A DNA stretch of 36,760 nt from Amoebophrya sp. A120. Taxonomy: Eukaryota > Protista > Dinoflagellata. Under the pieces are notes generated by a model, which did not search any database, was not told the DNA's origin, and saw only the letters and a program-made list of their open reading frames with translations. Shown piece after piece: positions 514 to 24,500 of the stretch. The stretch covers positions 174,718-211,477 of the forward strand of contig CAJINV010000023.1 in the NCBI GenBank assembly GCA_905178155.1, read 5' to 3'. The position numbers and the translations under genes are program-made. Numbering within the stretch: the stretch's first letter is position 1; each line of letters starts with the position of its first letter.

Positions 514-3500
514 ATGCAGGTGGAGGTGAGTCTGACGCGGAACCGGAATCTTACCGGCTCTGAGCTGATTTTGAAAAACCTAACGTCCACAATCACCTGC
601 GGAAACAGACAGCATACGGCGAGTCTGTACCATGAGGGGCAATATGAAATGCAAAAGCATCGTACTAGTATAAATTGCATGACAAATTCCCTCAGCATGA
701 AAAATGAAACTTGTAATGCGGATTTAGATTAGGAGGGATATTTGTAATGCATGATTGCGATTACTACGAGTACGATACTTTTGCACAGGATAGGCAAGTG
801 TTCAGCTTCGAGGAGGAGCAGCAGCAGATATGCATTGCAAACATATATGTCTGGGAGGATTAGAAACTTGTCTTGCTGATACTCGCATTGCAGTGTGGCC
901 GCTTGTACGGCAGAACAGCATCAGAAGTTTTTCAGGCTCGATGTAGCGGGGGATTCATCAACATTCATAAAGAGCAACACAAACTGGTTTCCAGCATGAG
1001 AAAATCACTAGCCAATCGTATTACTGCATCGTAGATCCTCTTGTCCTTCAACTATCGCATCACAAAATTTCCAGACCCAGACTACACATTTGCAATGCAT
1101 AACAGACCCTGGTGCTCCAAATTCAAAATCAGCAGACCAATATCCTGTGCAAAAGTATCTGATACTCGTATTGCAATCATGCATGCAGTCCACTGAATTG
1201 TCGTATAGACTGAGTTGTAGCAGAATACGAAAGCAAAGCGAAGCGAAGCTTACAGCGTATTGTATACCGAGCGAGCGTTTTCAAAGCAAGAACACGATTG
1301 CAAGCGAATCGCTTAAGCCTAACCATTTTGACCCTTCCGTCGTATATTCACCAAATCCCAAACAATGGCGAGCTCTCTGAATTGTCGCACCCCGAAGCAA
1401 TTCAACGTAGAAAATCAATGCAGCCTAGCGCAGCCGCTCAATGATATAGCGCAGGGGAGCACCAGAAAAAGCTGAAAAAGTAAAAAGCTAAGGGATTATG
1501 AGCAAGCGTTGCGTGAGCAGATTCAGAGAAAAACTCTGGCGCCTCGACGCGCAGCTTGCATGACAAAAATGAAAATGAGGAAGGAAAGCCTGCGCTTTCG
1601 CGCACGGAGCGCGATCTGTTGTTATCAGCGTTGCATCCGTAGTTGCAACGAGAACAAGAGCAAACGAAGCAGAAGTTAGCTTTTCTAGCGAAAATAACAG
1701 CAGAACGAGCACGAGAGTAAAGTAGAGAATACGAAAAAACGAAGACTATACTCGAAGAACAAGAAGTTAATAGTTGAGTGTGAAAATAAAGGAAATAATA
1801 ACAAAACGAAGACAGTAGATGCAAAAAAACTGCGCATGTGGAGTCTTGGAAGTGCAGCTGCTGGGCAGGTTGGTCGAAGCGGAGGCAACAAATCAACTTG
1901 CTTGGTGCGCTGCACTTCATGCTGTGTCTATATCTTCCGAAGGGCTATGCAATAACTAAACGAACGTAGGAAGAAACAACGAAGAACGACACAAACAGAA
2001 GAAGTCTATGAACCGAGAATAAAGGTGTTTGAGCCTTGACAAGAACAGTGCTTGTCATGAGAAGTAAAAGGGGCAAACTGGCAAAAAAAAGAGCGAAATA
2101 GCGTAAAGACACTTGCCGCGGCGCAATTGTAAACACAAAAAAAGAGACGAAGAGCCTACGCTTCTACATTCTTAAACGCAGACAAGGACCGGCGACCCTC
2201 CGAAGCCGAGGACGTGGAGGCCATGCGGTGAAGCTCTTGCAGCTCCGGCGGGGCGCGCGGCTCGATTGTAGTAGTGCGCCAAGTTGTTGGCATTCGCAGA
2301 AACTGGCCCCCCTGGAAATTTCTGGTAAGCGCCAGCGGGATAAACACAACGCAAGGGCAGCGCTGCGCACGCCACCACGCCATGGGCGCCGCTTCATAGA
2401 TGCGCCAGATGATGCTGACCCCTGTGACCCCTTCGATGCGAATTCGAATGCCGCGCGTAGCAGCCTCGACCCGACTAACGGACCCGCGTATGTTCGTTGG
2501 GGTTTGTCGCGGGCCCGCCGTTTCCAGTTCAGCAACGTCAGCGTAGGCGTTTGTTTGCGGATATGCCGTGCCAATTTGCCGCGGCAGCGTTTTTCTTTGT
2601 ACCAAAAGCGAAAAAAGAGACGCAAGCAAGCCCGCGGGGTAGGGCGGGTTTCTGCATGCAAATGGGCGCGCGGCGCCACAAAGAAAACGCGGCGCGGTAA
2701 ATTGGCGTGGCATAGCAATGGCAGCGAGCCTGTTCCGAAAACGCGTTCCATTGCGGGATCCACGGCAACGACGGCCGAAAGGTCGCTTCCTGTTCCGGAA
2801 GGCGCTGCCGCAGTCGGGGGCCCTGCGGGTGCTCTTGGCTGCACGGGCGCCGAAGGCGGCAAAGCGGTGGGCGGGGCTGCGTTGGGGGGGGGCGGCTTTG
2901 GTGCCGCATGGCTTTCGAGCCCGCCGGGGCAGCGCTTCACATCCTTCCACGGGACGTCCTTCAACGACGTTTCCCGCTTTTTGCCAGCAAGCACGCCGTC
3001 GCTGCGAGCATCAATGCCCAACGACTTCAGCTTGGTAACGACGTACGGACCCAAGAATTTTTTCGCGAGCCCGGGGCCTTTCTGGCGGTTTCGGCACAAA
3101 ACGCGTTCCCCAATTTTGAGCTTTTTGATGTCCTTGAGCCTGCTGGCATCGCCGCGGAGTTGGAAAAAGCGCTTCCGGTTCGTGAGCGCCTTCATTTTAA
3201 GGGAACTGCGCAGCGCGTTTGCGGCGGGGTCGCTTCCCGCGTTGTCGCTGCTGTCCGCTGCGTCGTCACTGCTTGTTTCCCCCTGCCGCCCAACCGGCTC
3301 CGCCACTTGTGCTTGCGGCCCGTTTTTCTTTTCTGCTTCTGCGCTGGCTTCGCTGTTGCCAACGATTTTCGGGGGCGCACGCGGCACGGGGTGAAGGGTG
3401 GCTTCCGTTACGTCTCGCAGGGGCCGCAGGAACGTCGCCAAATGCCGGGCAGCCGGAATGCGCCGGCTCCTGGTGGTGCGGCGGTTCAGGGCAGCAACGC

Positions 3501-6500
3501 ACGCCGTGTGGTGTCGCACCCAATCCCCTTCCCCGCCCCTCTTTCGCAGCTGTTGCTTCAATTGCCCATTATAAGACTCAGTGGCCCCGTTGGATTGTGG
3601 ATGCGCCCGGGGGCTCTCCCGGATGTCCGTGCGAAACGCTTGCCCCGCGGCGCTATCCGCCACAAAAGTGGCGCAGCGGTGGTCTCGGGTCAAGCACGTG
3701 CATTGGCTCCAGTCTTTGATCTTTTGCAGCTCGGTACCCTTGTCAATGTTCAGATGATCCGGGACCCCGTGTTCCTCCACCATGTCCAGATAGGCTTGCT
3801 TTACTTCTTCGGCCTCGAAGCTGGTTAGCAGTTTGGAACACACGGCGCCGGTGGTGAGGCAGCACATATTCAGACAGCCGACGAACTTGGTGCCCGCGTG
3901 TTTGCCGCGGTGGGCCGAATTCTCGCAAGGGGTGCAGATGATGCAATCTATTCCGGCCCAGCACGTATACATCGGAAAAGTAGCCCCCCACAATAACCGC
4001 AACGCGCCGCTGCGTGCAACACTCAAAAAAGACGGCGCGCTCTGTGTAGCTTGGCGCTTTCTCTTAGATTTGCGCGCCGCGTGTGGTTGCGGTTACGGGA
4101 GGCGGGGCACTTTTCCACAGGATAGGCGAAGGGGCGTAGCGATTCGTTGGCGGGGTCCCCAAGCGCCGCCAGCGTGGAACTGGCGTAGCTGTCCTGCTGC
4201 CTTGGCGCCGTTTCTTCGTTTGCCGCGCAAGCTTCGCACGCCTGCACTGCCTGCCGGGCACTTTCCTTGAAGCCGCACCATGTGAAACCTAGTTGCTGGA
4301 TGCCCGCCGCGGTCGCATCTACCCCCCCATGGGATCGCAAGTGGGCAAGGGCCGCGATGCGTTGCTTTTCAGCTTCGTCACCGGCGGGCACTACCGTCAA
4401 CCAATCAGGATACACCAAAAGCGCCTCCGTGGATTTGCGTCCATAGCCCTGAAACTCCGCGCGGACCTGCAGCTTGCTAGTGCCTGGGGCCAGGCGAAAA
4501 TAACGGGCCTTGTCCTTCCACCACTTGCGCTGCCGAGCGGTGAGCCCCAACGCCTTGCAGGCCGCCCTGACGTCGGCAGCTGCCAACAGCGTTTCGATCG
4601 TGTCATCGGGCAAAGAGAAATTTTTACCGGCGTTCGACTTACGGCCCCGCTTCAAAGGCGGGGGCGCGCACTCGCTTGAGTCCGAAACGCTTCCCAAATC
4701 GCCCTGCTCCGAATCGCTTGCGGCCGCAACAACCTCAGGCGGCAGCGGCGCGGATGCATTCAGCTCCGCGGGGCGCTTTTGCGGAGCATAGCCGGCGTGC
4801 TTTGGTTCTAGCGCCTGCGGATCATCTCCTATCGAGTGCTTCTCGGGGCCATTTTTGGCAGGCGCGTTTGGCTTTAGCGCTGGCGCGCTCGTTTCCGTGC
4901 CCTGCTTCTGGCAACCCGGGTCACCCCCCGCCGCCCCTGTTTCTGGTGCCTGCGGTGCTGCTTCCGCTTGCGCCGCCGGCCTCGCGCTGCTGCCTCGCGG
5001 GGATGCGCTGGGCAAAACATAGGCGTCATAGTGGCGGCCATCGTACTGCAAGCGGATTTCCGTCGTGCCGGCTCCAATTTTTTGAAACCTTACGGCGGAG
5101 CCGGGGGCGGGCTCGATGCAGATCGTGAGGCCCATCACCTGGGCGGCAGCTTCCAGAAAGGCGTGCCCAAGCCACACGGTTGCGGCTGGATGCAGCAGCT
5201 TCTCCAACCAGGACAGCCACTGGCTTTGCTCTTCCAGGACGCCGCGCCCCGCCGGTTCGTCAGCCCCATACTCCCCCACCCAAAACGGACCAAGCTCTTC
5301 GCTATGCCAATGCGCAACACACCCCCTTCCCCTTTTTTTCCTCCTTTGGCCTCGGTGATTGGCGCCGGGCCAAGCACCATCACAAGCGCCTACCATATGC
5401 CGGCCCGACTCAGAGCGGGTAGTCTCTGGCGCATTTTTGCCAGAACAACGGCAAACCGCCGAAGAACTTGAAAAAAAAAAACCAAAGGGCCGGCAATTCT
5501 GTGCGGAACGGAGAACAGCATCACAAATTTGGCCCGTCGTCTTTAAAGAGGGGGGGGGGGGTGTTGCGCGGTGCCATAATCACGCTTCCCGGCCATGAAA
5601 CCTTCCACCAGCTGCTTCACCTTCGGCATGCTGATACCCGTGGCCGCCGCAATGGAGAGAGGGCAACAGTTGCCGTTCCCCGCAATTTTTTGCAAAACCG
5701 CCTCTCCAGTCGTAGGCGCATCCTGTGCAAAACCCCCCCCCCCTCAAGATCACGGCGCGCCTTTGTCATGCTGTTTGCAACATTTTCCCGGAATTTTTCG
5801 GAAAAATCCGGGGAAAACTGTAAAAGGCCGACAAAATTCGGGCCCTGCGTTTGCGACAAGGAGGGGGGGGGACTATTTTCTTCGCCATATTTTGCCGGGG
5901 CGGCGCCGCTGTGGGGCCCGCTCGCGTGTTCCCCCCGAATCCATTCCACCCGGCAAAGCCATCCCATTTTTCCCGGTTTCGGGTTCCGGCTGCCGGGAAG
6001 GCGGCCGGGCTGACCCGCACGGTTGGCATTCGCGTCGCCGCCCAGGAGGGGCACCATCACGGTGCGGAAGTCTTTTTCGGCCTTTGCGCCCCCCTCCACC
6101 TTGTACCAACCCTGCCAGCACGTTTCTGATGTGCGGGTGACAAATCGGCCTATAAAAATGAAACTTCCCCCCGCCCCGAACTTAGACTCGAAATCTGTCA
6201 TGCAGATTTGTGGCCACAAATCAGATTTGTCATGCTAGAACAAAAAAAATGCAAACTGTAGAGCTGGTTCTCATGAAAAGTCCTTGCATCTTCAGCATGA
6301 CATCGGGCAGCTAGAAGTGCGAAACAACATGACAAATTCGCTGCAAATGAGGCCGCAGCTGCGTCTCTTGGCCTTCTAGCATTACAAGCCGGCCTGACTG
6401 TGTACTCAAAAGCAGCATTACAAATGTCGTTTTTGATATGGGGAGGGGGGTTTTTCATTCTAATACGGCAGCGGTGGTCTTCCTTGGCCTTTTCCACCGT

Positions 6501-9500
6501 CGCCGGCGAAACATTGTCGAGATCGACCAGAATCCACGCCGAGTTGGTCGGCCGAAAAAAATAATGAAACGCCCGCCCCAATTGGTCCGGCCGCCACTCC
6601 CGGGGCAACAAGATCTGGTCCATGACGAGAGTGCCTGTGGAAAATAAAAGCGAAAAATAGCAAAGGGGAGCGACGTGGAAACGAAGGCACATATCACAAA
6701 CGCTATAGAGGCTTGCCCAAGCAAAAGAACCTCCCAAAAAAGTTAACAAAACCACTACGAAAAAGGGCCGGAAACCAAAAACGATAAGCATACCGCCGCC
6801 GCCGCGCACTGGCTCCGTTGTTGTTGTCAAAACCAACTTTCGAAGCCCCCCGATGTCCGGGCAAAACTTGAGGACCCGCGCCATGTCCGAGGTCAAGGCG
6901 GCGGGGTCCAGGTCGTCCGTCACCAGCCCTTCGGACGTGTAGCGGTATCCCGGAAAAACGGACGGCGACCCCAGAACAGGGGGGGGCGGGGGGGGGGTGT
7001 TGTTCGCGCGCAGTCCCCCGCCGCGCCCGCGTCCGTCCCCGTCCGCTTCGGCCTTGCCCGCCTCCGACTCGCTTCCCGGGTCGGAGTCCGCGAGCGAAGA
7101 AGCTGGGCCCGCGTCGAACTTCGGCACCGCTGCCGCCGGTAGGGGGGGCGGGGCGGCCTTTTCGCCCTTTGGGCCCGGAGCACTGGGGGCCGGATCTTGT
7201 AACCAAGACACGTCCAAAACACTGCCCGCGCCGCTGTAGGGAAAAGCCGCCATCAGGTCGGCGTCGCGGGTTTTTTTGGCCACGTTGGCGGCAAAACTTT
7301 TCTGGCCCGGGCTGTAGGGCTGCGCCTCTTCCGACGCCGTAGCCAACATCCCTCCCAGCATGCTGCAACATCATGAAAAAAGCGCGCCCCAGCCGCGAAG
7401 GGCCGCCGGCGTCTGTGATGGGCGGAAATGCGAAAAAAACGAAAACGCCTGCCATGCCTAACATGCTGCCCCTGCTTCGCAAAGCCAGCGGCGCGCTTTT
7501 TTTCTGGGGGATATTTTTTCCTTCGGGTTCAACGTCTTCCCCAGGTCCCGAAGCTTGGCGAAGTTCGCCCAAAGGCGGCCCACCTTCAGGGCCGTAAGCC
7601 GCAGGCGCCGGCGCTGCGTGTCCGAGTAGGCCACCCGGTCGCCCATGTCGATCCAGCCCGCGGGGGTCAGGCGCGGCGGAAAGTTGCCCGAATCCCCGAA
7701 GCAGAATTCGGAATCGTCCGCATCCAGAAAGCCAGCGGCCGCCAAGGCCTTGGCCCGGTCGTAATCGCCGCCCACCGAAACGATTGCCATGGTTTGCAAG
7801 GCGAAATCGAAAAAATGCAAGAAGGAGAAAAACGCGAAACAACGAAAAAGGTAGAGAAGCCAGAAACGTAGCAAGCTAGTGCGTGGCTGGTATTTTTTTG
7901 CTTAGTAGGGAAGAGGTTTTTTGTGGTTAGTGCGCTCGTTTTTCGTCCGAGGTCGACAAGTTGTTTTTTTTTTGGGTAGCGTGTTCTTTTTTCGTCTGAA
8001 CGAGACAAATTGAAGTTGGGCACTGTAGTGAAGATGAAACAAGAAAAAAATAGTATAAGCAAGAGCCACAAAGTCGCGATCGTATGACTATCACGTGATT
8101 GCTCACATGATAGTCATGTGATTTTGGACCCCCATAAGCCAATTTGAATTGTTTCGATCACGTGATAATCAAATGATTATCACATGATAACCGACCCAGG
8201 ACGAAAATTACATCTGTCGCACCATATGACAGATCCCCCGTCATACTTACGCACGAAAAGCAAAAAACATGAACGAAACGCAACGAAAACGGCAAAAGAA
8301 CGAAGACCGAGCGTATATACAATACGATGACAATTCAGATTGTACGAAGCCATGCCGAAAAATAAAGTGAAAAAAGCAATTCAGCGTGGCGCAACTCAGA
8401 TTACTGCATGCATTACAAATTTTTTTCTCAAGGTAAATCCACATTACAAATTTAATTTCTCATGCTGAGGAAATTTGTAATGCATTTATACGAGTACGAT
8501 ACTTTTGCAATGCATAACCAAGACCATGATGTACGTGCGCACCATTCCGCTAAAACAAGTGTTGCAGCACTGCCAGCAGATCAACGGCCCATTTCTGAAT
8601 TGGGTGCCAGTCTACACACCCGGAGACCCGTCAGACCAACGTTTTGATGTCCGACACCCAGCAGAAGACCACGAGCCGCAGGTCTACCTGTCGCTGAAGA
8701 TGTACGCGCGGAGCTCCTACAACAACGCGCTGCCCCCGGGTTCTGGCCAAAACCTCAGGAACATGATGCCCGCAAGCGGCGGCGGTTACTTTCCTCCCGA
8801 AAGAACGACTTCCAGTGCGGTAAACCAAGTGCCACCCCATCCGCCGCAGCCGATGGGCGCAGCAGCAGCAGCTTTCGCGCCCAACTCTCCGCAGAATAGC
8901 AATCCGGGAGTTGGCAGCTACGGAGGTGCAGCCAACATGATTGTGCCAGGCAACATATGCACTGTAAAAGTATCGTATTCGTATAAATTATGCACTGCAA
9001 ATTAGCTCAGCATCACAAATGGAATTTGTCATGCTGATTTACCTTAGCGTGTAGATTTGTAATGCATAATTGCGATTACTACGAGTACGATACTTTTACA
9101 CTTGATAAAACATCCAGCGTAGGAACTCCACTTCCCGGGGGAACCACCCGCAGTCGCCGCCCCAGTCCTCCGAACTGCTCGCAAATAACTATTATCGTGA
9201 GAAAAAATAAGTATAGACAGTTACACATTATGTTGCAGGAGCCACAGACAGAGACAACCTCTGTCATGCAGGAGATGCTTGCCAACCTCATTCCTTTCGT
9301 GTTTTCCCTTATAGTCCGCGCATCACAGGTTTTCCTCGCCATGTCGAGCAACTCGGTGATGCAGAAACTCCAGCAAATGTGTAACTGAAACAGTTTTTTC
9401 CTGTGATACCTATCGCGGGCAAACTACTATCACGGCGGGGGCGCCGCCCGGCGGTCTTGCAGCTGGTGCAGCAGGCGCATCGGCGAATAACTTCGTCCTT

Positions 9501-12500
9501 GAGCACCAACAATTTGGCGCCCAGGTCGGCGGCCAAAACAACCTGCAGAACCAGCCCGCACCAAATATGTACTCGACCCGCCCGCAGACGCACGCGCACC
9601 TGGTCGGGGGACCTGGTGCTCCGCCACACGTCGTCGCGCGGCAAGTGCTAGAGGAGCAGACGCAGTTGCCACAGTCGACGCCATCGTTACGGAGCAACAA
9701 TCAACAGCAGACAGCTCCGGCCACGCTGAACGACGCAGACCTTTCGGAAGCGAAGTGGATGGCCAATCACATCCAGCGCCACATGTATCAAATGGAAATA
9801 TGTCTGGGTCTGGAAATTTCTTGTGATGCAAATCTGTGAATGGTGGGCTCACTACAATATGCAGCCAAGCATGTTGACAAGTTTTTGCAGTGCCATGCGT
9901 TTCGTTTTCCGCATGGCAAGCTGCGTTTTTGCACGACAGGCAAGACGACCCGTTCCTGCTTACGCATCACGACAGATCTAAGAGTGATGCCAGACAAGCA
10001 TGACAAGTCCTGCATTCTTCCAGACCCAGACATTTTTGCAATGCATAACATGGCGCAGTCCGCGATCCAGCAGCAGGCCGTCGAGAAGCTGCTATCGCAA
10101 GGAAACATCCCCCCTCCCCATATTGACGAGGTAGGTTTTCGAAAATTTGTGTTGGTTGATTTGTGACCACAAATCGTGTCTGTCTTGCAGGACTGCGACT
10201 CCACCGGCTCCGCCGCATCAATTACGCAGGCGGTTTGTCATGCCGTTGGGCCTACAGCGCGGACGTTTTTCATGCTAAGCGCCTGGCCTAGGTGGAAGAG
10301 GAAGCCTCTCTACTCAGGCTTGATATGGGTCCGCAGTCCTCTCCAGCAAAAAGACAAGCCGACTTCTGGCCACGTCAAAGCAGCGGCACAAGTTTTCTTT
10401 TCGATATGTGCTGGGGAATTTTTCCTTTTGATAGCTGCAAAACAAAAACAAGAGCCTCGAGCAGCAGTATCAAATGTAAAAATGTCTGGGTCTGGAAGAG
10501 TCATGCTGTTTTTGCATGACACAGAAGGTCTGGCATGGAAGCTCTAGCATCACAGGTTTCGAGAACCTTCCGCAATGCCGAATCCGCATGACAGGTCCCC
10601 TATTTTGCTGGCAAAAAGTGGGAGCTTTTGCTGCGTATGCATGAGAGACTTTTCTGTGTTCTGAAATACGCATTACAAGTTGCATTCTTCCAGACCCAGA
10701 CATTTTTACATTTGGTAAGCAGGTGCAGACACTGAAATCCGAGTATCAAATGCAAAAATGTCTGGGTCTGAAGGAGGAGAACTTTGTCATGCACATTTTC
10801 CATGATCCATGATGTCTCTGATGTATGCCATAGCATCACAGATTTTTTGAGCGCCTATCGATGCGCATCCTGCATGACAAACCAATACACTCTCCACGTA
10901 GCCAAATTTGACTCCTCTTGCTGCTCATGCAATGCAGATTTTTTTAGCATCCAAATGCAGCATCACAAGTTTCTTTGGCTCTTCCAGACCCAGACATATT
11001 TGCAATCCATACCGAGCTGCAGATGACGAAGCACGAAGCAAAGATGGAACTCGAGAAGGTAGAGACGCGGGTGAAGGCAAAGCTGACGCAAGACCTGGCG
11101 GCCGAGCGCAACGAGTGGATTCGGATCAATATATCAAATGCAAATATGTCCGGGTCCTCTGGAAGGATGCAAGCTTGTGTTTGTGATGCGAAGATCACAT
11201 CACATGAAAATCTCTCGTGCCTGGACACGTTGCCCGAATCATTGTCACGGAAGGAGGAAATAAAATCTGTCTTGCGGATTAGGCATTGAAAAGCCTTCCA
11301 AAGTTTTGTGATGCTGGGGCTTGCTTGGCAGACGAGATGACCTTCTGGGTCATGCAAAAACAGCATGTCAGACATCTGCACTCATCGAGAGGACCCATAT
11401 GACATATCTGTATTTGATACAACACGGAAAAAAGCGATTTGCTTCAGCAGGATCTGTATGAATTGAAAAAGTATCGAACTAAGTCTAGTATGAATTGAAA
11501 AAGTACTTCTCACGCCCTTCTTGACACAGATCCGCGTGGGCATTGCCAGGAAGGCTCTTGCGTGTCAAGAAGGTTCCGCTAGCTCGTGTTTCGTTTTCAG
11601 GGGTCCAAAGTTTTTTTGTTCTTCCAGATGCAGCATTACAAGGTTTGAAATCGCTCAAAATTTGAAACACGAGCTAGCGCGCCCTTCTTGACACAGAGCC
11701 GCGCGGGCATTGACAGGACGGCTCTTGCGTGTCAAGAAGGTGCCGTTAGCTCGTGTTTCGTTTTCAGGGTTCCAAAAATGTTTTGTTTTTCCAAATGCAG
11801 CATTACAAAATTTGAAATCGCTCAAAATTTGAAACACGAGCTAACGCGCCCTTCTTGACACAGAGCCGCGCGGGCATTGACAGGACGGCTCTTGCGTGTC
11901 AAGAAGGTGCCGTTAGCTCGTGTTTCGTTTTCAGGGTTCCAAAAATGTTTTGTTTTTCCAAATGCAGCATTACAAAATTTGAAATCGCTCAAAATTTGAA
12001 ACACGAGCTAACGCGCCCTTCTTGACACAGAGCCGCGCGGGCATTGACAGGACGGCTCTTGCGTGTCAAGAAGGTAGTACCGCTAGCTCGTGTTGCGTTT
12101 TCAGGGTTCCAAAAAGTTTTTGTTTTTCTAAATGCAGCATTACAAAGCTTGAAATCGCTCAAAATTTGAAACACGAGCTAACGCGCCCTTCTTGACACAG
12201 AGCCGCGCGGGCATTGACAGGACGGCTCTTGCGTGTCAAGAAGGTAGTACCGCTAGCTCGTGTTGCGTTTTCAGGGTTCCAAAAAGTTTTTGTTTTTCTA
12301 AATGCAGCATTACAAAGCTTGAAATCGCTCAAAATTTGAAACACGAGCTAACGCGCCCTTCTTGACACAGAGCCGCGCGGGCATTGACAGGACGGCTCTT
12401 GCGTGTCAAGAAGGTGCCGTTAGCTCGTGTTTCGTTTTCAGGGTTCCAAAAAGTTTTTGTTTTTCCAAATGCAGCATTACAAAGTTTGAAATCGCTCAAA

Positions 12501-15500
12501 ATTTGAAACACGAGCTAACGCGCCCTTCTTGACACAGAGCCGCGCGGGCATTGACAGGACGGCTCTTGCGTGTCAAGAAGGTGCCGTTAGCTCGTGTTTC
12601 GTTTTCAGGGTTCCAAAAAGTTTTTGTTTTTCCAAATGCAGCATTACAAAGTTTGAAATCGCTCAAAATTTGAAACACGAGCTAACGCGCCCTTCTTGAC
12701 ACAGAGCCCTACCGGCATTGACAGGACGGCTCTTGCGTGTCAAGAAGGTGCCGTTAGCTCGTGTTTCGTTTTCAGGGTTCCAAAAATTTTTTGTTTTTCC
12801 AAATTCAGCATTACAATGTTTGAAATCGCTCAAAATTTGAGACACGACCTAACGCGCCCTTATTGACACAGAGCCGCGCGGGCATTGACAGGACCACGGC
12901 TCTTGGTTGCGTGTCAATAAAGTTCCACTAGCTCGTGTTTCTTTTTCAGGGTTCCAAAATTTTTTTTGAAATCGCGAGTACAGGAGGCGCCGTTGCCACG
13001 TGTTCCTTTTTCAGGGTTCCAAACAGTTTGCGTTTGCCCACATGCAGCATTTTGCGTAACTAGAACCAAAACTACAAGTAGTGCGATATTTTTGCAATGA
13101 ATAACCTGGTATGCACTGCAAATATGTCTGGGTCTGGAGGAAAAGATGGTGCACGCTTTATTGTCATGCAGGTTTAACATAACCAAGAAGGTCTCGAATG
13201 TCGGCTCTAGCATCACAAGTGAAGAAGTTTTGAGAAAGCTCCGCAATGCTGAATCCGCATGCGAAGAGAAGTGCCGCCTTCTGGTAACCAAAAGTGATGA
13301 AGACTTGTTTTCCTGGTCACGCAATATAGATTTTCGTGTCGATCAGATTTAGCATGACAAAGTCGACGGACTCTTCCAGGAGACCCAGACATATTTGCAA
13401 TGCATACCTGGACCGCGCCAAAGTGGAAAAGACCAGTCTGGAGCAGCGCCTGTCGAGCTACGTATGAGAGTGCACAACTCCCCCTCCCCCGCCTCATTTG
13501 TAATGCAAAAACCCAAACTGCTCACACCGTGCTTATCCTTATCAGTGCTGTCTGCATGACAAATTTACGAAGCTCACACAGTGAGTACTACAGTCCGCAA
13601 GTAAATTTGTCACACGGAAACTACATTAAACATTTATTCTGCCGTTGCTTGTATTGCTGTCCATGCCCTACAAATGAGGGGGACGGGGGGGTTGTGCACC
13701 TTCATACTACGAAAAGCTCGAGCACGAGTTGCGAGCCAGAGGTCTGGAATTGGAAAAAGTGAAGGCGGAAAACGAGCAGGTGCGCAGAACTTGCTTTTTG
13801 GTGACACACAGTTGTTCTGAGATGAGCTACGACCTAGGATGTAAAAACTGATACTGATTGAAGTAGGATTTTTAGGGATACAGAAGAATGTAGTTGAAGA
13901 AGATTATGCGTAGTACACAGCTATGAGCTGTCGGGTGGCCTACTTCCAGTTTATCTTATCGTCATGTTCTTGCCCCGGGCATGATCGACTGGGGGCGGGA
14001 CTTTTGCAAGACAAAAGAGGGGGAGGGAAAAATAAAATCATTTCGTGCACATCAAGAACTCTCATAATATTCACATCAGATTAAGCGGCTCCGCGACACA
14101 GCCGAGCACGAGACGAATATCCTGTGCAAAAGTATCATACTCGCACTAATTATCGCAGCCGTGCAAGACAAATTTCTTTTTCAAGCTAAATCAGCATCAG
14201 AAGCTATTCCATTTGTCATGCTGAGCTAAGTTGCTTATTGTTTTTGTATTGCAATTATACTACGAGTGCGATACTTTTCCAATTCATACCGAATCTCCAA
14301 AAGCAACGCTATCAAATGCAAAAATGTCTGGGTCTGGAAGGTTGGAACTTGTGATGCGCATTTCACAACACGCAAAAATCTCTCATGCATTGGTAGCAAA
14401 AGCTGCCCATTTTCTGTCACCGAAATGGGGGATTTGTCATGCTGATTCGGCATTGCGGAAGCTTCTCGAAGCCTGTGATGCTGAGCTTCCATGCCAGACC
14501 TTCTGTATCATGCAAAAACAGCATGACTCTTCCAGATCCAGACATTTTTACATTTGATAAACGCCTACATGAGACAATCCAGAAATCCAGCTTCGAGAAA
14601 AAAACGCAAATATGAGAGTGCACAACTCCCCCTGCTCCCCCTCATTTGTATTTTTGCATGAACAGCAATACAAACACCAGCACACGTGGAGCCTATGCAT
14701 GAGAAATTTATGTCCCTACGTGTAGTAGTAGTACATACTGTTTGGGATTCCGGAATTTCTCCTGTAGTAAACAGTGCCACACAGCAGAGACTGGATCTGG
14801 ATTTGGGGTTTTGCATGACAAATGAGGGGGAGAGCGAGTTATGCGCTTTCATAGCAAAAAGAGGAAATGCAGAAAGAAAGGGAGCACTTTCAGCTGTTGC
14901 TGAAGCAGGCGAGGTATGAACTGCAAAAGTGAGTTGTTGCTTCTAGTGGGAATCGCATGGCAATAAATTTTCTCACCAGCATGAGAAATCAAATTTGTCA
15001 ATGCTGATTTAGATTTTGAGTCACCTTCGGTGGAACGAGATTTGAAAAATTATGCATGATTGCGATTAGTATCACGAGCGCAGTGCTGTTGCAGACAGGA
15101 TAAAAGCGACAAGCACGAGATGAATCAGACCACCATACAGAATACCATAGCGCAAAAATGTCTGGGTCTGGAAGAATGCAACTTGTGATGCTGCATTTGG
15201 ATTCCAAAAAAATCTGTATTGCATGAGTAGCAAAGGGAATGCAATTTTTGCTACGCTGAGAAGGCATTTGTCATGCGGAATAGGCATCAAGAAGCCTTCA
15301 AAAAATCTGTGTTGCCGGGGTATGCATCACAGACATCATGGCTCATGCAAAACGTGCATGACAAGTGCCAGAATCTTCCAGACCCAGACATTTTTGCACT
15401 TCATACAGAACCAGTTCGACGCGGAGTTTGTCGTTCTGATATCCACAGTAAATTAAAATTTCCCGCACATGTACAACAAATTCGGTCTCTGCAAGACAAA

Positions 15501-18500
15501 ACTTGGCTTCGATCGACGTTTAGCATGACTAGTTTTACCCTCTAAATTGGTGAAGTTTGTGATGCATCCACCTGTACATGTAAGTACGGGAAATTTGTAT
15601 TGCATATCTGAAAGAGAAAAACAACGACTTGGAGCTGAAGGTGACCACTTTGAGTGCGCACTATGAGAACGCGCAGGAACTGCTAAAGCAGTACGAGCTC
15701 GACCTTGTGGAGGAAAAGCACGGCGCGAAACTGTTATGGAATGCAAATATGTCTGGGTCTGGTTCTGGAACACTGCAACATGTCATGCTAACGCAGAATC
15801 ATGCAAAAATCTGCCTTGCGTGATTACCAGCAAAGGCTGTGCACTTTCGACCAAGTTTCACGACGCAGGATAGGCATGATGATAGAGATCTCACAGAATC
15901 TGTCATGCTAAATCCTGCATTTCAGACCTCAGGGGTCATGCAAACTCGGCATGACAAATCGCGCATTCTTGTTCCAGACCCAGACATATTTGCACTGGAT
16001 AACTGTTGCAAGAGAACTACCTGAAGCAGGAACACGCACTCAAATCGGAATTGGACCAGACCTTCAAACGGGTAGAAATTATCCTGTGCAAAAGCATCGT
16101 ATTCGTATTGCAGTCATGCATATACAAGTCTTTTTGTTAAGTGTCAAATCCGCATTACAAATTTCATTTCTCATGCGGAGGAAATTTGTAATGCATTTAT
16201 ACGAGAGCTGCGATACTTTTGCAATTGATAGAAATGATCGAGCAGCAGGGCAACAAAGAAGTCGACACGCTCCGAGATTCCCTGCTCATGGAAAAGACGC
16301 AACGAGCGGTATAATCGTCCTCTATGTGCTGTAAAATTTAAAATTTCGCTCTGCTTCTGAGCAGCAGTTTCTCTTTCGCTTTACGAAAGCATCTTGCACT
16401 TGTCCTGCAGTGGTTTCACCGAAAAGAACCCGCTTACTTACCGGCGCCAAAGATTTCGCGTACCGGTGCGCCCATACGCTCCTGTTTGGCTCGCGTACCG
16501 GCGCCGTGCCGGCGCTTCTTTTAGGTGTCTGTGCGGTTTTTTTTGATGTAGTTTTGCCATTTTCTCTGTTCATGTTCTGGCTCTTGAGTAAAAAAAAAGA
16601 ATCCCTATCCTTAGGCCGAGAAAGCGAGCGCCGCGGACCAGATCCGCAAACTGGAGCAGGCTATCCAGGGTCGCACAGCGGAACTTGAGCAGCAGCGCCG
16701 CTATGCAGTGCAAATGTGTCTGGGTCTGGAAGGATGCAAGGTTTGTCATGCTTGTCTGGTATGTCTGAAGAGTCTGTGATGCGGGTCCAAGAAGAGACCC
16801 TCTTGCGTGTCATGCAAAGACGCAGTTTGTCATGTGGAAAATGCAAGAACACTAAAGCAGCGCGGATATTCCCCATGCTTGGCTGTGCATTACAGAGCAT
16901 TCACTATTCGTATTCCCCACCCAGCATTACAAGTTTCCAGACCCAGACGTATTTGCATTCGATAGCCGCGAGACGGAGACAAAACTCATGGAGCAACAGA
17001 AGCTGTTGGCAGACAAACAGAACCTTATGGAGAACGAGTTGGAGAAAACGCGGTCGAGTTTGCTGCTCGACAAGGAGCGCGCCGTGCAGAGTTTGGTAGA
17101 AGAAAAAAACCTAGAGCTGGCGGAAAAAAACCGAGAATGGGATACGAAATACCAGGACATGAAGAACAGCTACGCCAAGGACCTGGACACCACGACGGCA
17201 CTTATGAACCGCATAAGTACCGTACTCGTAGTAATTGGAATTGCAGTCATGCATTACAAATTTTTTTCTTAAGGTCAATACGCATTACAAATTCTATTTC
17301 TCATGCTGAGAAAATTTGTAATGCATTTATACGAGTACGGTACTTTTGCAATGCATAGCACTGACGCAGCAGCAACAGAACGCGCTGCAGCACGAACTTG
17401 AGGGGATCACCAAAGAAAAAAAGCAGCTGCAGGACTATGACCCGCTCAGACGTTACAATCTCAACTGTTACAATAGAATCTGGAAATCTATGATGCAAGA
17501 ACTGCATGATCTAGCCTACTCCCATAGCCATAGGATTACGCATGATAAGTTTCGGAGTCCCAAACCCACCTGAAATCCGGCAAAATTTGTATTGCGAAAA
17601 GCTCGATTCTCTCTGCGTTCCTCATGCTCTTCATGCAATACAAATTCTAGATTCTATTGTAACGTTTGGGATTGTAACGCTTGAGCAGTTCATAAGGATC
17701 TAAGCGACAGACTCGCCAGCGAAAAACAGAAGCTTGAAAGCGAGAAGCGAAGCCTAGAAATGACAATATCGGGGGAGCGGTCAAAACAGGACAAGCAGGC
17801 GACGGAGCTTGCGACGCGGGAAAAGCAGGCGGCGGACCAACTCGCGGCGCTCCGCGCGGAGCTCGTGAGCTTGCAAGAGAAGGCCGATGAGGAGCGACAG
17901 ACCCTGGACCGCGAAAAGCTGGAACTCGAAAGCACTTTGGCCGCGAAGGCGCAGGCCGCTTCGGCGCTCGAGAAGGAGAAGCTAGACTTGCTGGAAAAAA
18001 TGAAAGAGCGGCAATCGGAGTTCGAGTTGCAGAAAAGCCTAACTTATGCAGTGCAAAAGCATACTCGCGCAGCTAGTAGTAGAAGTAATTGCAATAGTAC
18101 GAATTAGCTCAGCATGACGCCGCATCATCATCAAAGTTGTCATGACGATTTAGCTTGAAAAAGAGACTTGTCATTTGCTTTTATTTGTAAATTACTACGA
18201 ATACGACTACACTTTTGCCATGCAAATCGCGTCGCACGAGTCGGAGCAGAAGCTGCAAGATGCGCAAAAGGAATTCCAGAAGGAGTTGCAGGGGATGCAG
18301 ACGCAGGTGATGCGACTGGAAATGGAGAAGAAAAATGCGGAAAAGGGCTACGCGGAGAGGCTAGAAGCCGAACGAGAAAAGCTGGTTAGCGAAAACAACC
18401 AGAGCGCTGAGAAGTACAACAGTTACATCGACACGATGGAGCAGCATTCGCAGTCTTTGCAGCAAGAGCTGGACAACGTGAAGATCCGCAGCACGGACCT

Positions 18501-21500
18501 GGAGCAGTCGGTGAGTGCCCTGCAGCATGAAAAGCACGAGCAGCAGCAGAGCATGGAGCGGGCGAAGCAGGACGCGGACCGAAAAGTGCAGGACCTGACG
18601 CAGCAACTATATTATCCTGTGCAAAAGTATCGTATGTAGTGAGGTCACCGAACGGTTCTAACCAGGGAGTTTTTTTGACAGCTACCCTGAAAAACGACCG
18701 GCAGTTTTCAAGCGGCCGGAGGCGTTTTTTGACATAAAAAATTTTTAATTATCAAGCGGACGGGGCTTTGCCGTCAAACAAGCCCGGTCGAAAACTATCG
18801 ACTCGCACTTGATAAAACGACGCAGGGGAGCCGGGAAAAGGGGCGCCCTTCTGAGGCGCCCGCCCCCTTGGTTTCTGGCGATTTGGGGCGCCCAAAAAGG
18901 GGCGCGCAAAAAACGCGCCCAAAATCAAAACAGCGAAACAGCATGGCACGGCCGCGATTTCGGAGCATTTTGGGCGGCCGCGAAAGCGGCCGCCTTTTCG
19001 CCGGTTTCAGAGCCTGGGAAGCTTTGCAAAAAGCGCCGGCGTGAAAAATAAAAACGCGAAAAAGAAAAAGCGCCCCAGACGCGCAAAGCCAATCCGCATG
19101 CTATGGGCCCGATTTTTCTTCGCTTTTTGGGCGCCCCCCGTGGCACCCGGATCGGCCCCATAGCATGGGGGCTGGCCTTCGGAAAGGAATTTCGGGAATT
19201 TGCCAAAATTTGCGATGTTTATCAAGCGGCCGCCATACCGTGCGGCCTAACGTTACTCACGGCGGTATGGCGAGCCCAGAAAAAGCAAAGCCGCGGCCAA
19301 GGCGATGGCCGGCAAGAAAACGCCCAACGACCTCACTACCTCCGCCCCGGCGGCTATATTTGGTACTCGTAGTAATTGGCATCATGCATTACAAATCTTC
19401 TTCTTAAGGTAGATCCGCATTACAAATTTTATCTCTCATGCTGAGAAAATTTGTAATGCATTTATACGAGTGCGATGCTTTTGCGGTGGATATGTATACC
19501 GAGCAGACCAAAGCCGAGATTTTGCGCAAGGACAAACAAGCCCTAGAATCGGAGGTTTTAACGCTGAAACAGTCCGTCGCGAGCGGCGAGCAGAAGATGG
19601 CGAATTTTCAGGAGGAAGTGCAGCAGTTGCGCAGCTTCCAGCAGCAGACCAACAGCGCGACCAGCGAACAGATGCTGCAATTCCAAACGGAGTTGCAACA
19701 GGAGTTCGAGAAGAAATTTTCCCTACAACTGACCAACCAGCGGGAGGTCATCGAGCAGAAAGACGCCCAGATTATCGCTCTGGAACAGGAAAAGTCGAAG
19801 CACGAACAAGACGTGGACAGCCTCACGGAGATGATGCAGCACGCAATGGTGATGGAGGAAGAAAAGAACACCGAGATCGCGATTCTGAAAAAGTTCATTG
19901 CGGACAACGTGGATCTCAGCGACGACAACAATAACGTCCTGCGCGACATGATCTTGAAGGACAAAGACAGCGCTGGAAATCATCATCTCCTGAACAGCCC
20001 GGGAGGTGGAGCAGCAGGTCCCGTTGCAGCAGGGGCAGCCACGACTGTGTCGGGGAATCCTAGCGGCAATATGATGATCGATCCGAGTTCGCTGAACCAA
20101 ATGATGATGATGCGCATGACGCCGCCGCCGCGGGGAGGCAGTACTAACATGTTCCAGCCCAGTCCGGGTCCAGTCGCTTCATCTGGGGCCGGTAACATCA
20201 ATGTGAATGTGCTGCAGCAGCAGGGGCCAGCACCGCCGCAAGGTTCATCTACCTTTGGAATTTCCCCGTTCGCAGCGCGACCCGGCGGCCTGGTGGGCAA
20301 CATTGGACTACCCTTGCATCTCCCGGCCGTGGGGTTGACCAATCCTGCGGGCGGGCCTGGTGCGGGTCCGCAGATATAACATGCTCAGGTTTTACAATCT
20401 CAAATCGGTTACCATAAAATCTGGAGTTTGTAATGCAAGAAGTGCATTATCTAGCCAACTCTCATAGGATTGAGCATGACAAGTTCTGGAGTCCCAATCC
20501 GCACTACAATCTGGCGAAATTTGTATTGCAGAAAGTGGAATGCTCTGCGAGTCTGTCATGCTCCTCATGCAATACAAAACCCAGATTCTATTCTAACGTT
20601 TGAGATTGTAACGCTTGAGCAGGTCATAGAAGATATGGTCGTCTTCTTCGGTTGAGCAGGAGTATGGCGGCGGGTACACTGGTTTTACCACCAGCACCGC
20701 GAAGTCTGCCATTGTCGTCGGCTGCAACTTATGAACTGCAAAAGTACAGTATCGCACTAGTATAAATTGGATTACGAATTGGCATTGAGTTAGCATTACG
20801 AATTAAATTTGTAAATGCGGACTTGCCCGAATGCGAAGCGCCTGTATGCCGCTGCGAAACGCAGCAAGCTTCTTGCTGAATTTGTCCGAATTGGCGCAGC
20901 AGAGGTAGCTCGTTGGCAGCCTCTCGCCTACGTTTCGCTTGTGCATAAGGACCTCCAGGGCCGTGCGTCATGTTCTGCCTCACGTCTTAGACGGATGCCG
21001 CACGTCTGACCTTCGTGCAGCCTGGGCCCCGACTCATGCCGCCTCTGCCTTTTCGTTGCGCCTTCTACGACGCTCGCCCGCAAAGAAGCGGCGGCCCCCG
21101 CAAACGTTGCCGCGCCCGCCCGCTTGAAGCTGAACGCGGCAAACCCGCACGGGGGGACGAAACGAAGCGCGCGGCGCTGGTGATTCTCGAGACCAAACCG
21201 CGAGGAAAGTCGCCGCCCTTTTCGCAGGAACGCAAAAACGAGACACCCGCCCGCGCCCGTGCTCGCTAATCGCAAAGAAACGGCGGCCCCCGCGGACGCT
21301 TTCGCGCCCGCCCGCTTGAAGCTGAACGCGGCAAACCCGCATGGGGAGACGGAACGAAGCGCGCGGCCCTGGTGGTTCTCGAGACCAAACCGGGAGGAAA
21401 ATCGCCGCCCTTTTCGCAGGAACGCAAAAACGAGACTCCCGCCCGCGCCAGTGCTCGCCTATCGCAAAGAAACGGCGGCCCCCGCGGACGTTTTCGCGCT

Positions 21501-24500
21501 CGCCCGCCTGAAGCGGAACGCGGCAAACCCGCATGGGGAGACGGAACGAAGCGCGCGGCCCTGGTGGTTCTCGAGACCAAACCGGGAGGGAAATCGCCGC
21601 CCTTTTCGCAGGAACGCAAAAACGAGACTCCCGCCCGCGCCAATGCTCGCTAATCGCAAAGAAACGGCGGCCCCCGCGGACGTTTTCGCGCTCGCCCGCC
21701 TGAAGCTGAACGCGGCAAACCCGCATGGGGAGACGGAACGAAGCGCGCGGCCCTGGTGGTTCTCGAGACCAAACCGGGAGGAAAATCGCCGCCCTTTTCG
21801 CAGGAACGCAAAAACGAGACTCCCGCCCGCGCCAATGCTCGCTAATCGCAAAGAAACGGCGGCCCCCGCGGACGTTTTCGCGCTCGCCCGCCTGAAGCTG
21901 AACGCGGCAAACCCGCATGGGGAGACGGAACGAAGCGCGCGGCCCTGGTGGTTCTCGAGACCAAACCGGGAGGAAAATCGCCGCCCTTTTCGCAGGAACG
22001 CAAAAACGAGACTCCCGCCCGCGCCAATGCTCGCTAATCGCAAAGAAACGGCGGCCCCCGCGGACGTTTTCGCGCTCGCCCGCCTGAAGCTGAACGCGGC
22101 AAACCCGCATGGGGAGACGGAACGAAGCGCGCGGCCCTGGTGGTTCTCGAGACCAAACCGGGAGGAAAATCGCCGCCCTTTTCGCAGGAACGCAAAAACG
22201 AGACTCCCGCCCGCGCCAATGCTCGCTAATCGCAAAGAAACGGCGGCCCCCGCGGACGTTTTCGCGCTCGCCCGCCTGAAGCTGAACGCGGCAAACCCGC
22301 ATGGGGAGACGGAACGAAGCGCGCGGCCCTGGTGGTTCTCGAGACCAAACCGGGAGGAAAATCGCCGCCCTTTTCGCAGGAACGCAAAAACGAGACTCCC
22401 GCCCGCGCCAATGCTCGCTAATCGCAAAGAAACGGCGGCCCCCGCGGACGTTTTCGCGCTCGCCCGCCTGAAGCTGAACGCGGCAAACCCGCATGGGGAG
22501 ACGGAACGAAGCGCGCGGCCCTGGTGGTTCTCGAGACCAAACCGGGAGGAAAATCGCCGCCCTTTTCGCAGGAACGCAAAAACGAGACTCCCGCCCGCGC
22601 CAATGCTCGCTAATCGCAAAGAAACGGCGGCCCCCGCGGACGTTTTCGCGCTCGCCCGCCTGAAGCTGAACGCGGCAAACCCGCATGGGGAGACGGAACG
22701 AAGCGCGCGGCCCTGGTGGTTCTCGAGACCAAACCGGGAGGAAAATCGCCGCCCTTTTCGCAGGAACGCAAAAACGAGACTCCCGCCCGCGCCAATGCTC
22801 GCTAATCGCAAAGAAACGGCGGCCCCCGCGGACGTTTTCGCGCTCGCCCGCCTGAAGCTGAACGCGGCAAACCCGCATGGGGAGACGGAACGAAGCGCGC
22901 GGCCCTGGTGGTTCTCGAGACCAAACCGGGAGGAAAATCGCCGCCCTTTTCGCAGGAACGCAAAAACGAGACTCCCGCCCGCGCCAATGCTCGCTAATCG
23001 CAAAGAAACGGCGGCCCCCGCGGACGTTTTCGCGCTCGCCCGCCTGAAGCTGAACGCGGCAAACCCGCATGGGGAGACGGAACGAAGCGCGCGGCCCTGG
23101 TGGTTCTCGAGACCAAACCGGGAGGAAAATCGCCGCCCTTTTCGCAGGAACGCAAAAACGAGACTCCCGCCCGCGCCAATGCTCGCTAATCGCAAAGAAA
23201 CGGCGGCCCCCGCGGACGTTTTCGCGCTCGCCCGCCTGAAGCTGAACGCGGCAAACCCGCATGGGGAGACGGAACGAAGCGCGCGGCCCTGGTGGTTCTC
23301 GAGACCAAACCGGGAGGAAAATCGCCGCCCTTTTCGCAGGAACGCAAAAACGAGACTCCCGCCCGCGCCAATGCTCGCTAATCGCAAAGAAACGGCGGCC
23401 CCCGCGGACGTTTTCGCGCTCGCCCGCCTGAAGCTGAACGCGGCAAACCCGCATGGGGAGACGGAACGAAGCGCGCGGCCCTGGTGGTTCTCGAGACCAA
23501 ACCGGGAGGAAAATCGCCGCCCTTTTCGCAGGAACGCAAAAACGAGACTCCCGCCCGCGCCAATGCTCGCTAATCGCAAAGAAACGGCGGCCCCCGCGGA
23601 CGTTTTCGCGCTCGCCCGCCTGAAGCTGAACGCGGCAAACCCGCATGGGGAGACGGAACGAAGCGCGCGGCCCTGGTGGTTCTCGAGACCAAACCGGGAG
23701 GAAAATCGCCGCCCTTTTCGCAGGAACGCAAAAACGAGACTCCCGCCCGCGCCAATGCTCGCTAATCGCAAAGAAACGGCGGCCCCCGCAAACGTTTCCG
23801 CGCCCGCCCGCTTGAAGTTGAACGCGGCAAATCCGTATGGGGAGACGAAACGAAGCGCGCGGCCCTGGTGGTTCTCGAGACCAAACCGGGAGGAAAATCG
23901 CCGCCCTTTTCGCAGGAACGCAAAAACCAGACGCCCGCCTGCGCCAGTGCTCGCTAATCGCAAAGAAGCGGCGGCCCCCGCAAATGTTTCCGCGCTCGCC
24001 CGCTTGAAGTTGAACGCGGCAAATCCGCATGGGGAGACGAAACGAAGCGCGCGGCGCTGGTGATTCTCGAGACCAAGCCGGGAGGAAAGTCGCCACCCTT
24101 TTCGCAGGAGCAGCACGGCGACCGCCCCGCCTGCGCCCGTCCACCCAAGCCAACCAAACGAGCCCCAGCGCGTTGCTTAGCTTATATCCTTCTCGATTTA
24201 TTGTTCAGTAGAAGGCCGCGGCCGCCCGGACGTCCTGCCGCCCGGTTGTAGCTCTGTCTCCGATGTGCTGCGGATTTGCCTTAGCAAAAAGATCTGGAGC
24301 GCATGCATTGCGTCGCAATATAGACATAGAGCACGAGGGCGCCGAGCACTTTTGCAGTTCATACAACTACCCAAACGTCCGCAACGCGGGTATGGACAAG
24401 CTCGCAAGCGGGGAAGTCGTCAACTGTTAACTTGATTCCTTGTCGTGCGAAATTGGAATTGCCATGCATCAGCTTCAGCATCTTGGATAGTAGCAGAATC

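Follow-up and report, generated by a model that had tools for sequence, protein, structure and literature searches.

A stretch of 36,760 nucleotides from Amoebophrya sp. A120 (GenBank assembly GCA_905178155.1, contig CAJINV010000023.1, positions 174,718 to 211,477; the whole stretch is called the window below) was found to carry a 7.2-kb element with discrete ends, which is a genuine insertion. The element is judged to be an undescribed integrase-primase DNA transposon and a variant of the integrase-type DNA transposons. Its predicted gene joins the catalytic core of a plasmid-type primase to a putative OTU protease, an integrase and a candidate single-strand binder. There is about an even chance that the element moves by self-primed copy-out followed by paste-in, with elongation left to the polymerase and helicase of the host. 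A bolder proposal is put forward only tentatively, namely that it is the first example of a new replicative class among the DNA transposons of eukaryotes. In such a class one polyprotein, combining an integrase and a plasmid-type primase with a single-strand binder and a self-cleaving OTU, would serve a single-strand copy primed at the element's own twin hairpins and a retrovirus-like integration, with no reverse transcriptase (RT), polymerase, helicase or capsid.

Boundaries and Terminal Signals

Read on the minus strand, the left boundary consists of TGCA followed by TGCAGTAATCTGAGTTG at 8408, and the right boundary of CAATTCAGTGGACTGCA followed by TGCA at 1184. The termini are TGCAG at both ends. 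Within the terminal bases 13 of 17 pair, and beyond them the similarity is at the level of motifs only. All four of the paralogous host repeats tested aligned across the junction once the element and one TGCA had been removed. Because the joined flanks align with these empty host repeats, the boundaries are fixed and both the insertion and its 4-bp duplication are genuine, and the TG...CA ends, imperfect 17-bp terminal inverted repeat (TIR) and 4-bp target-site duplication of the original prediction were borne out. The insertion site, ATGCAT, is a 6-bp palindrome, and the end together with the duplication produces TGCATGCA at each of the two junctions.

The motif CTGARTTG has eight matches in the window, six of which lie within 200 bp of the element ends, three per end and in mirrored orientation; these motifs are candidate integrase-binding sites. 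Near the left end, two hairpins (8079-8122 and 8157-8188) were found to be more stable than any of 200 shuffles (z of -4.6 and -4.0 on the two strands). All five matches to ATCAC(A/G)TGAT in the window fall within 8079-8188. The terminal 120-140 bases fold no better than shuffles (z between -1.6 and +1.3), and no match was found in Rfam. Two 47-bp direct repeats, 74% alike, are located at 7917-8012, upstream of the start codon. The element as a whole is contained in a single host introner (1141-8516), antisense to apparent host exons at 442-642 and 8517-8955, and may be removed by splicing along with its host intron.

Gene Structure and Introners

Joining of the domains needs seven interruptions and eight exons (Table 1). 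The seven introns of the original prediction were thereby recovered, but not its length of 1,408 aa: a splice model guided by inverted repeats (IR) gave a stop-free open reading frame (ORF) of 1,417 aa, the exact length being model-dependent. As the non-canonical edges were freely chosen, the open frame is partly a matter of construction. In-frame GT-AG joins are available for introns 1 to 6, including the primase-OTU junction, whereas intron 7 has no such option. OTU and H2C2 have one exon in common.

Terminal inverted repeats were detected in introns 1, 3, 5, 6 and 7. Their five scores, in ascending order, are 30, 40, 40, 46 and 50; shuffle maxima were 28-30, and none of 55 coding controls exceeded 28. 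Introns 2 and 4 fell short in the same comparison with shuffles. The motif TAT-N7-AAA, the inverted-repeat motif of Amoebophrya A120 introners (Farhat et al., PMC7789003), occurs 107 times in the window (mean 15 and maximum 29 in 100 shuffles). Taken alone, this motif marks the host as a likely Amoebophrya-type dinoflagellate. Of its ten matches within the element, six lie at the edges of introns 1, 3, 4 and 6. More than 60% of the introns of this organism are given as non-canonical in the same source. Non-GT-AG, hairpin-bounded introns are usual in an Amoebophrya-type genome. To judge from these repeats and motifs, most of the seven interruptions are hairpin introners of the Amoebophrya type. 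Moreover, one DNA contig of run X1 skips 5303-5591 (joint 5302-5592) with the OTU frame kept, from which it follows that intron 5 is a later insertion. The window at large is dense with introns of the TAT-N7-AAA type. Introns 5 (5301-5581) and 7 (2563-2714) start with TATG and end with CATA, lack the AAA of the introner signature, and show no internal similarity.

A leave-one-out codon model preferred the modelled frame in all seven exons tested and, less strongly, in the last exon as well, and one codon bias is common to all exons. Some introns also score positive, largely through homopolymer runs. Intron 4, read in the primase frame, scores 0.11 even without such runs, and its retention could possibly yield a stand-alone primase ending at 5617. 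Exon 1 had no match in Pfam, PHROG or NCBIfam, and its predicted structure, with a pLDDT of 50, was of too low quality for a fold search.

Table 1. Position of the element, its terminal features and the exons and introns of the predicted gene within the window.
Feature	Position	Strand	Remarks
Whole element	1184..8408	minus	7,225 bp; within host introner-type repeat 1141-8516
Target-site duplication TGCA, left copy	8409..8412		flank comparison
Target-site duplication TGCA, right copy	1180..1183		flank comparison
Left end: imperfect TIR (13/17) and three CTGARTTG motifs	8331..8408	minus	
Right end: TIR and three CTGARTTG motifs, mirror orientation	1184..1384	plus	
Two hairpins from ATCAC(A/G)TGAT	8079..8188		candidate single-strand priming signals or promoter elements
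Exon 1 (ATG 7790), N-terminal region	7512..7790	minus	frame picked by codon model
Intron 1, IR introner	7362..7511	minus	TAT-N7-AAA at 5' edge; edges approximate
Exon 2, low-complexity linker and start of primase domain	6794..7361	minus	
Intron 2, GT-AG, 159 nt	6635..6793	minus	without IR
Exon 3, primase motif I (DLD at 6524)	6467..6634	minus	
Intron 3, GT-AG, 317 nt, IR	6150..6466	minus	TAT-N7-AAA at both edges; holds indels of another copy
Exon 4, primase motifs II and III (QGW 6114, D 6036, R 6003)	5887..6149	minus	
Exon 4, alternative 3' edges	5950 or ~5887	minus	GT donor (5950) or IR edge (~5887)
Intron 4, primase-OTU link	5720..5886	minus	TAT-N7-AAA at 5889; CAG acceptor at 5723
Exon 5, OTU N-terminal part with Cys (GNGNC, 5668)	5582..5722	minus	
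Intron 5, IR insertion	5301..5581	minus	missing from another copy
Exon 6, OTU His (HYD 5033), linker, H2C2 zinc finger (4343-4229)	4125..5300	minus	
Intron 6, IR	3970..4124	minus	TAT-N7-AAA at both edges
Exon 7, integrase D3948, D3744, E3579; GPY 3051; proline-rich tail	2715..3969	minus	
Intron 7, strong IR	2563..2714	minus	without in-frame GT-AG
Exon 8, RPA-like OB fold (lead level)	2156..2562	minus	stop 2158-2156

The Primase Core

Exons 3 and 4 are predicted to encode the catalytic core of a RepB'-family archaeo-eukaryotic primase (AEP), as had been proposed. Joined, they scored 30.4 bits on a profile built from 72 RepB-family loci (E 1.6e-11 for one comparison), and exon 4 alone scored 22.1 bits; the reversed peptide gave -2.6, and the highest score among 2,000 shuffles was 4.5. 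The spliced primase shares 26% identity over 149 aa with the RepB primase of the IncQ plasmid pDN1. DLD (6524), D (6036) and R (6003) align with D77/D78, D134 and R145 of RSF1010 RepB', residues which are required for activity (PMC8567376). In the Pfam check suggested along with the original prediction, the H2C2 zinc finger reached its cut-off, whereas exon 4 alone matched RepB_primase only weakly (15 bits; cut-off 24.3). An alternative frame with KFHFY as primase motif II was rejected, as it scored -0.5 bits on the RepB-family profile.

OTU, Integrase and Candidate OB-Fold Domains

Across the intron-5 join, a profile of 12 viral OTU-like sequences, chosen by their Cys motif, gave a colinear but modest match of 9.8 bits (shuffle maximum 1.9) with both Cys and His aligned. 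The OTU protease domain expected here (5722-5007) is thus putative and less firmly supported than the primase; a search with bacterial OTU sequences gave no match.

The predicted H2C2-DDE-GPY integrase was also recovered. H2C2 scored 25.5 bits against PF17921, at the Pfam cut-off, and the integrase core scored 0.93 against rve clusters in Atlas (24 of 30 matches). Weak matches were seen to rve_3, IS481 and a foamy-virus integrase (the last with E 1.8). The spacing between D2 and E is 54 residues, a value of about 35 being usual. The GPY motif at 3051 was read by eye and has no profile match.

The original prediction did not include the OB-fold-like exon at the C-terminus (2560-2159). Exon 8 scored 0.90 against RPA OB domains in Atlas, its ten best family matches all falling in one OB clan, and is taken as a lead towards an RPA-type OB fold and candidate single-strand binder. 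Codon use favours its frame over the other two. A single-sequence structure model (pLDDT 37) was too poor for a fold search. A tail that continues in the integrase frame as far as 2164 was discarded on codon use (score -0.12 vs +0.03), though the winning score is itself low.

As predicted, no RT, gag, PolB or capsid, and likewise no helicase, was found in the 12 minus-strand ORFs, 12 exon pieces and 12 further ORFs searched. Plasmid and phage searches returned chance-level matches only, and PDB searches returned no homologue.

Copies and Selection

DNA contigs of run X1 are identical to the window over three unique host stretches and divergent within the element. This combination points to paralogous copies. 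Among the 40 of 261 differences listed, 29 lie in the element and 19 in exons. Silent changes make up 11 of these 19, which gives p 0.004 if the neutral share is taken to be 27%; three differences sit in one codon and were counted separately. The listed coding differences fall in exons 1, 2, 6, 7 and 8, with none in exons 3-5. Summed depth was 24-72 inside the element (outside the repeat-bearing intron 3), 79-103 near its ends and about 30 in unique host DNA; this suggests that there are few copies, summed depth not being equal to copy number.

Relation to Known Mobile Elements

The element resembles Ginger1, in which one protein carries an H2C2, DDE and GPY/F integrase together with an OTU domain, the gene contains introns, the ends are TG..CA, the duplication is 4 bp and the size is 2.6-7 kb (PMC2836005). 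To this extent the likeness to Ginger elements that had been noted held up. However, in Ginger1 an OTU or Ulp1 domain is C-terminal to the integrase, while the OTU of the element (5722-5007) precedes H2C2 (4343). Ginger1 termini are TGTNR rather than TGCAG, its TIRs span 40-270 bp as against some 17 bp, or some 35 bp when the motif pair is included, its duplication is CCGG/CCGT rather than TGCA (at one site), and its protein has 500-800 aa as against about 1,420 aa predicted (PMC2836005). The element also has additional primase and OB-like domains and a non-animal host. A further Ginger1 criterion is a YPYY motif ahead of the zinc finger. Ginger2/TDD elements share the occurrence in protists, a duplication of 4-5 bp (4 bp here) and an RTATAY palindrome comparable to ATGCAT. 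In contrast to the element, with its GPY at 3051, they are without GPY/F, have TIRs of 45-297 bp and are described without a primase (PMC2836005). The element is Ginger-like in integration, yet it departs from several defining Ginger features, a looser likeness than first proposed.

TIR elements of no assigned class, with ORFs resembling integrases, are on record for Amoebophrya A120. Introner family 38 of Amoebophrya A120 has TIRs and ORFs homologous to integrase regions of LTR (long terminal repeat) retrotransposons (Gozashti et al., 2025, PMC12130899), and has been termed reminiscent of Ginger but not Ginger. Its text description includes no primase, OTU or OB fold. The end strings of the element were not found in 12 of the 14 supplement files of that paper. 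Overlap with family 38 or its sister families is possible.

Polinton-like viruses (PLVs) and Tlr1 likewise combine an RVE integrase with a replication-initiation enzyme (AEP-S3H, TVpol-S3H or pPolB-S1H) and an OTU-type protease. They carry helicases in multi-gene genomes of 14-40 kb, PLVs also with capsid and ATPase (PMC11161782, PMC3671162, PMC12220804). The element, on the other hand, has one 7-kb gene with a RepB'-family AEP; no helicase or capsid was found in it, nor any pPolB, primase-helicase or ATPase of the Polinton, PLV or Tlr1 type. Its primase is colinear with the catalytic domain of RSF1010 RepB', matches it at the catalytic positions and likewise has two hairpins on its replicon. 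The RSF1010 system includes a C-terminal helix bundle/PriCT-1, the RepA helicase and RepC (PMC8567376, PMC5862659), none of which was detected with the element primase. The latter is in turn fused to an OTU and an integrase in a eukaryote. In Helitrons and Helentrons a replication-type enzyme is accompanied by RPA and OTU domains (PMC6431247), but Helitrons use an HUH Rep-helicase and make no target duplication (PMC12130899), whereas the element has a DDE integrase, an AEP and a 4-bp duplication; no HUH Rep-helicase was found in it. An LTR retrotransposon is not indicated either, as no long direct repeat was seen among the 20 families listed or by eye at the ends, and there was no RT or gag match. 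Lastly, IS3-family transposases are related to integrases of this kind (PMC2836005). A literature search on the architecture and the host, with Repbase, Dfam and most subscription papers outside its range, turned up no integrase transposon of a eukaryote that carries a RepB'-type primase.

Proposed Mechanism and Alternatives

Insertion of the element is explained by its integrase, its ends and the duplication. A primase of a plasmid-initiating family, a likely single-strand binder and two hairpins suggest a single-stranded intermediate, which favours copy-out. We infer that primase, binder and hairpins form one coherent kit for single-strand replication. IS3-family elements are copied out by host priming.

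If self-primed copy-out is correct, the host would splice out the seven introns, mostly later introner insertions, to yield a protein of about 1,420 aa. The integrase would bind the paired CTGARTTG motifs, cut the CA ends and release or displace one strand of the element. This strand would be coated by the OB fold and given a primer by the primase, probably at the twin hairpins (8079-8188), by analogy with RepB', which primes at its two hairpin ssi sites (PMC8567376). Host polymerase and helicase would then complete the duplex, and the integrase would insert it with a 4-bp stagger. The OTU might free the domains of the polyprotein or act as a deubiquitinase.

Several findings weigh against this scheme. 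The single polyprotein is a predicted gene model. Three RNA runs contributed 0, 1 and 358 reads; these map to host repeats throughout, while host exons and the element received none, so the runs were uninformative on splicing. Intron 7 requires a non-canonical join. The OB match of exon 8 covers 145 of 256 features, fewer than the 170 typical of same-family matches, and the exon had no match in Pfam, PDB, PHROG or NCBIfam. CACGTG occurs inside the hairpins, which could instead be promoter elements. Only one insertion site was observed. Moreover, RepB' is inactive without its helix-bundle domain, and its isolated domains are inactive (PMC8567376). A profile of this domain from 29 sequences, on which the control scores 98.9 bits, gave no exon more than 1.7 bits and scored 96 joins of exons 1 and 2 at 0.0; the same RepB C-terminal profile found none in the intron 4 read-through. 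The replicative idea of the original prediction gained leads from the OB exon and the hairpins, but not the helix bundle of RepB'. A PriCT-1 profile (16 sequences) had no match in the element and also missed its own positive control, so that a diverged PriCT-1 is possible; in another family PriCT may precede the primase (PMC5862659). A permuted, N-terminal helix bundle looked plausible by eye and was rejected as unproven (0.0 bits on the profile). Nor was a helicase or polymerase found in the element.

That neither a helix bundle nor a helicase was detected would fit a Ginger/TDD-style cut-and-paste transposon, in which the AEP core and OB fold are accessories for gap filling, end processing or donor-site repair. 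Cut-and-paste integrase transposons have TIRs, TG..CA ends and a 4-bp duplication (PMC2836005), and bacterial AEPs serve in end joining too (LigD; PMC5862659). This account is considered unlikely, though worth keeping in view, because the AEP belongs to the replication-initiating RepB' family and is accompanied by an OB-like exon and twin hairpins.

Two further observations count against copy-out and raise the prospect that the exons for primase and OB fold were picked up as passengers, or belong to a chimera that arose only once, and contribute nothing to movement. No relative was detected by a word-index search (weak by design) or a profile-free search with 75 aa, or in viral contigs or metagenomes, and the silent-change signal does not extend to the primase core (exons 3-4), since no variants fall there among the 40 of 261 differences. 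OTU and RPA are in addition known cargo of Helitrons and Gingers (PMC2836005, PMC6431247). Nevertheless, the catalytic residues and the reading frame have been preserved despite introner insertions, the divergent DNA contigs span exons 1-2 and the integrase with silent changes in both, and a single codon bias runs across the exons, which makes mere passengers improbable. Equally doubtful, if not slightly more so, is a reduced PLV or Tlr1-type descendant that has lost capsid and helicase and depends on a helper virus like a transpoviron: the best look-alike cluster of the integrase core is commonest in Preplasmiviricota (few members with taxa), PLVs pair an RVE integrase with an AEP-helicase, and a vOTU is proposed to cleave PLV polymerases (PMC11161782), yet the element has one intron-rich gene, a short TIR, a 4-bp duplication, no remnant of capsid, ATPase or helicase, and no relative among viral contigs.

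Surroundings of the Element

Elsewhere in the window, a tandem array spanning 21079-24258 comprises some 16 repeats of 192 bp; its GC content is 65%, and both strands contain open frames of 900-1,050 aa. A second array, at 11495-12969, has 8-10 copies of 167-170-bp units. Coiled-coil-like host exons at 18154-20379 have weak Pfam matches only, and two exon-like ORFs at 32600-33765 weakly match Ion_trans (E 0.001 and 0.005).

Implications

In the reports compared here, DNA transposons of eukaryotes that copy themselves rely on an HUH Rep-helicase, as Helitrons do, or on a polymerase or primase-helicase, in most cases alongside capsids, as in Polintons, PLVs and Tlr1 (PMC6431247, PMC11161782, PMC3671162, PMC12220804). 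If self-primed copy-out is right, an integrase element of 7 kb equipped with no more than a primase and a single-strand binder would add another, minimal route to replication. It would also place a bacterial plasmid primase family at work in a eukaryotic nucleus and, on the bolder proposal of a new class, form a minimal link between copy-out elements of the IS3/IS481 type, Gingers and Polintons. For Amoebophrya A120, with its abundant introners, no transposase is reported (PMC7789003). The element is a candidate autonomous integrase in this lineage, and it offers a one-gene system for asking how integrase transposons acquired replication modules.

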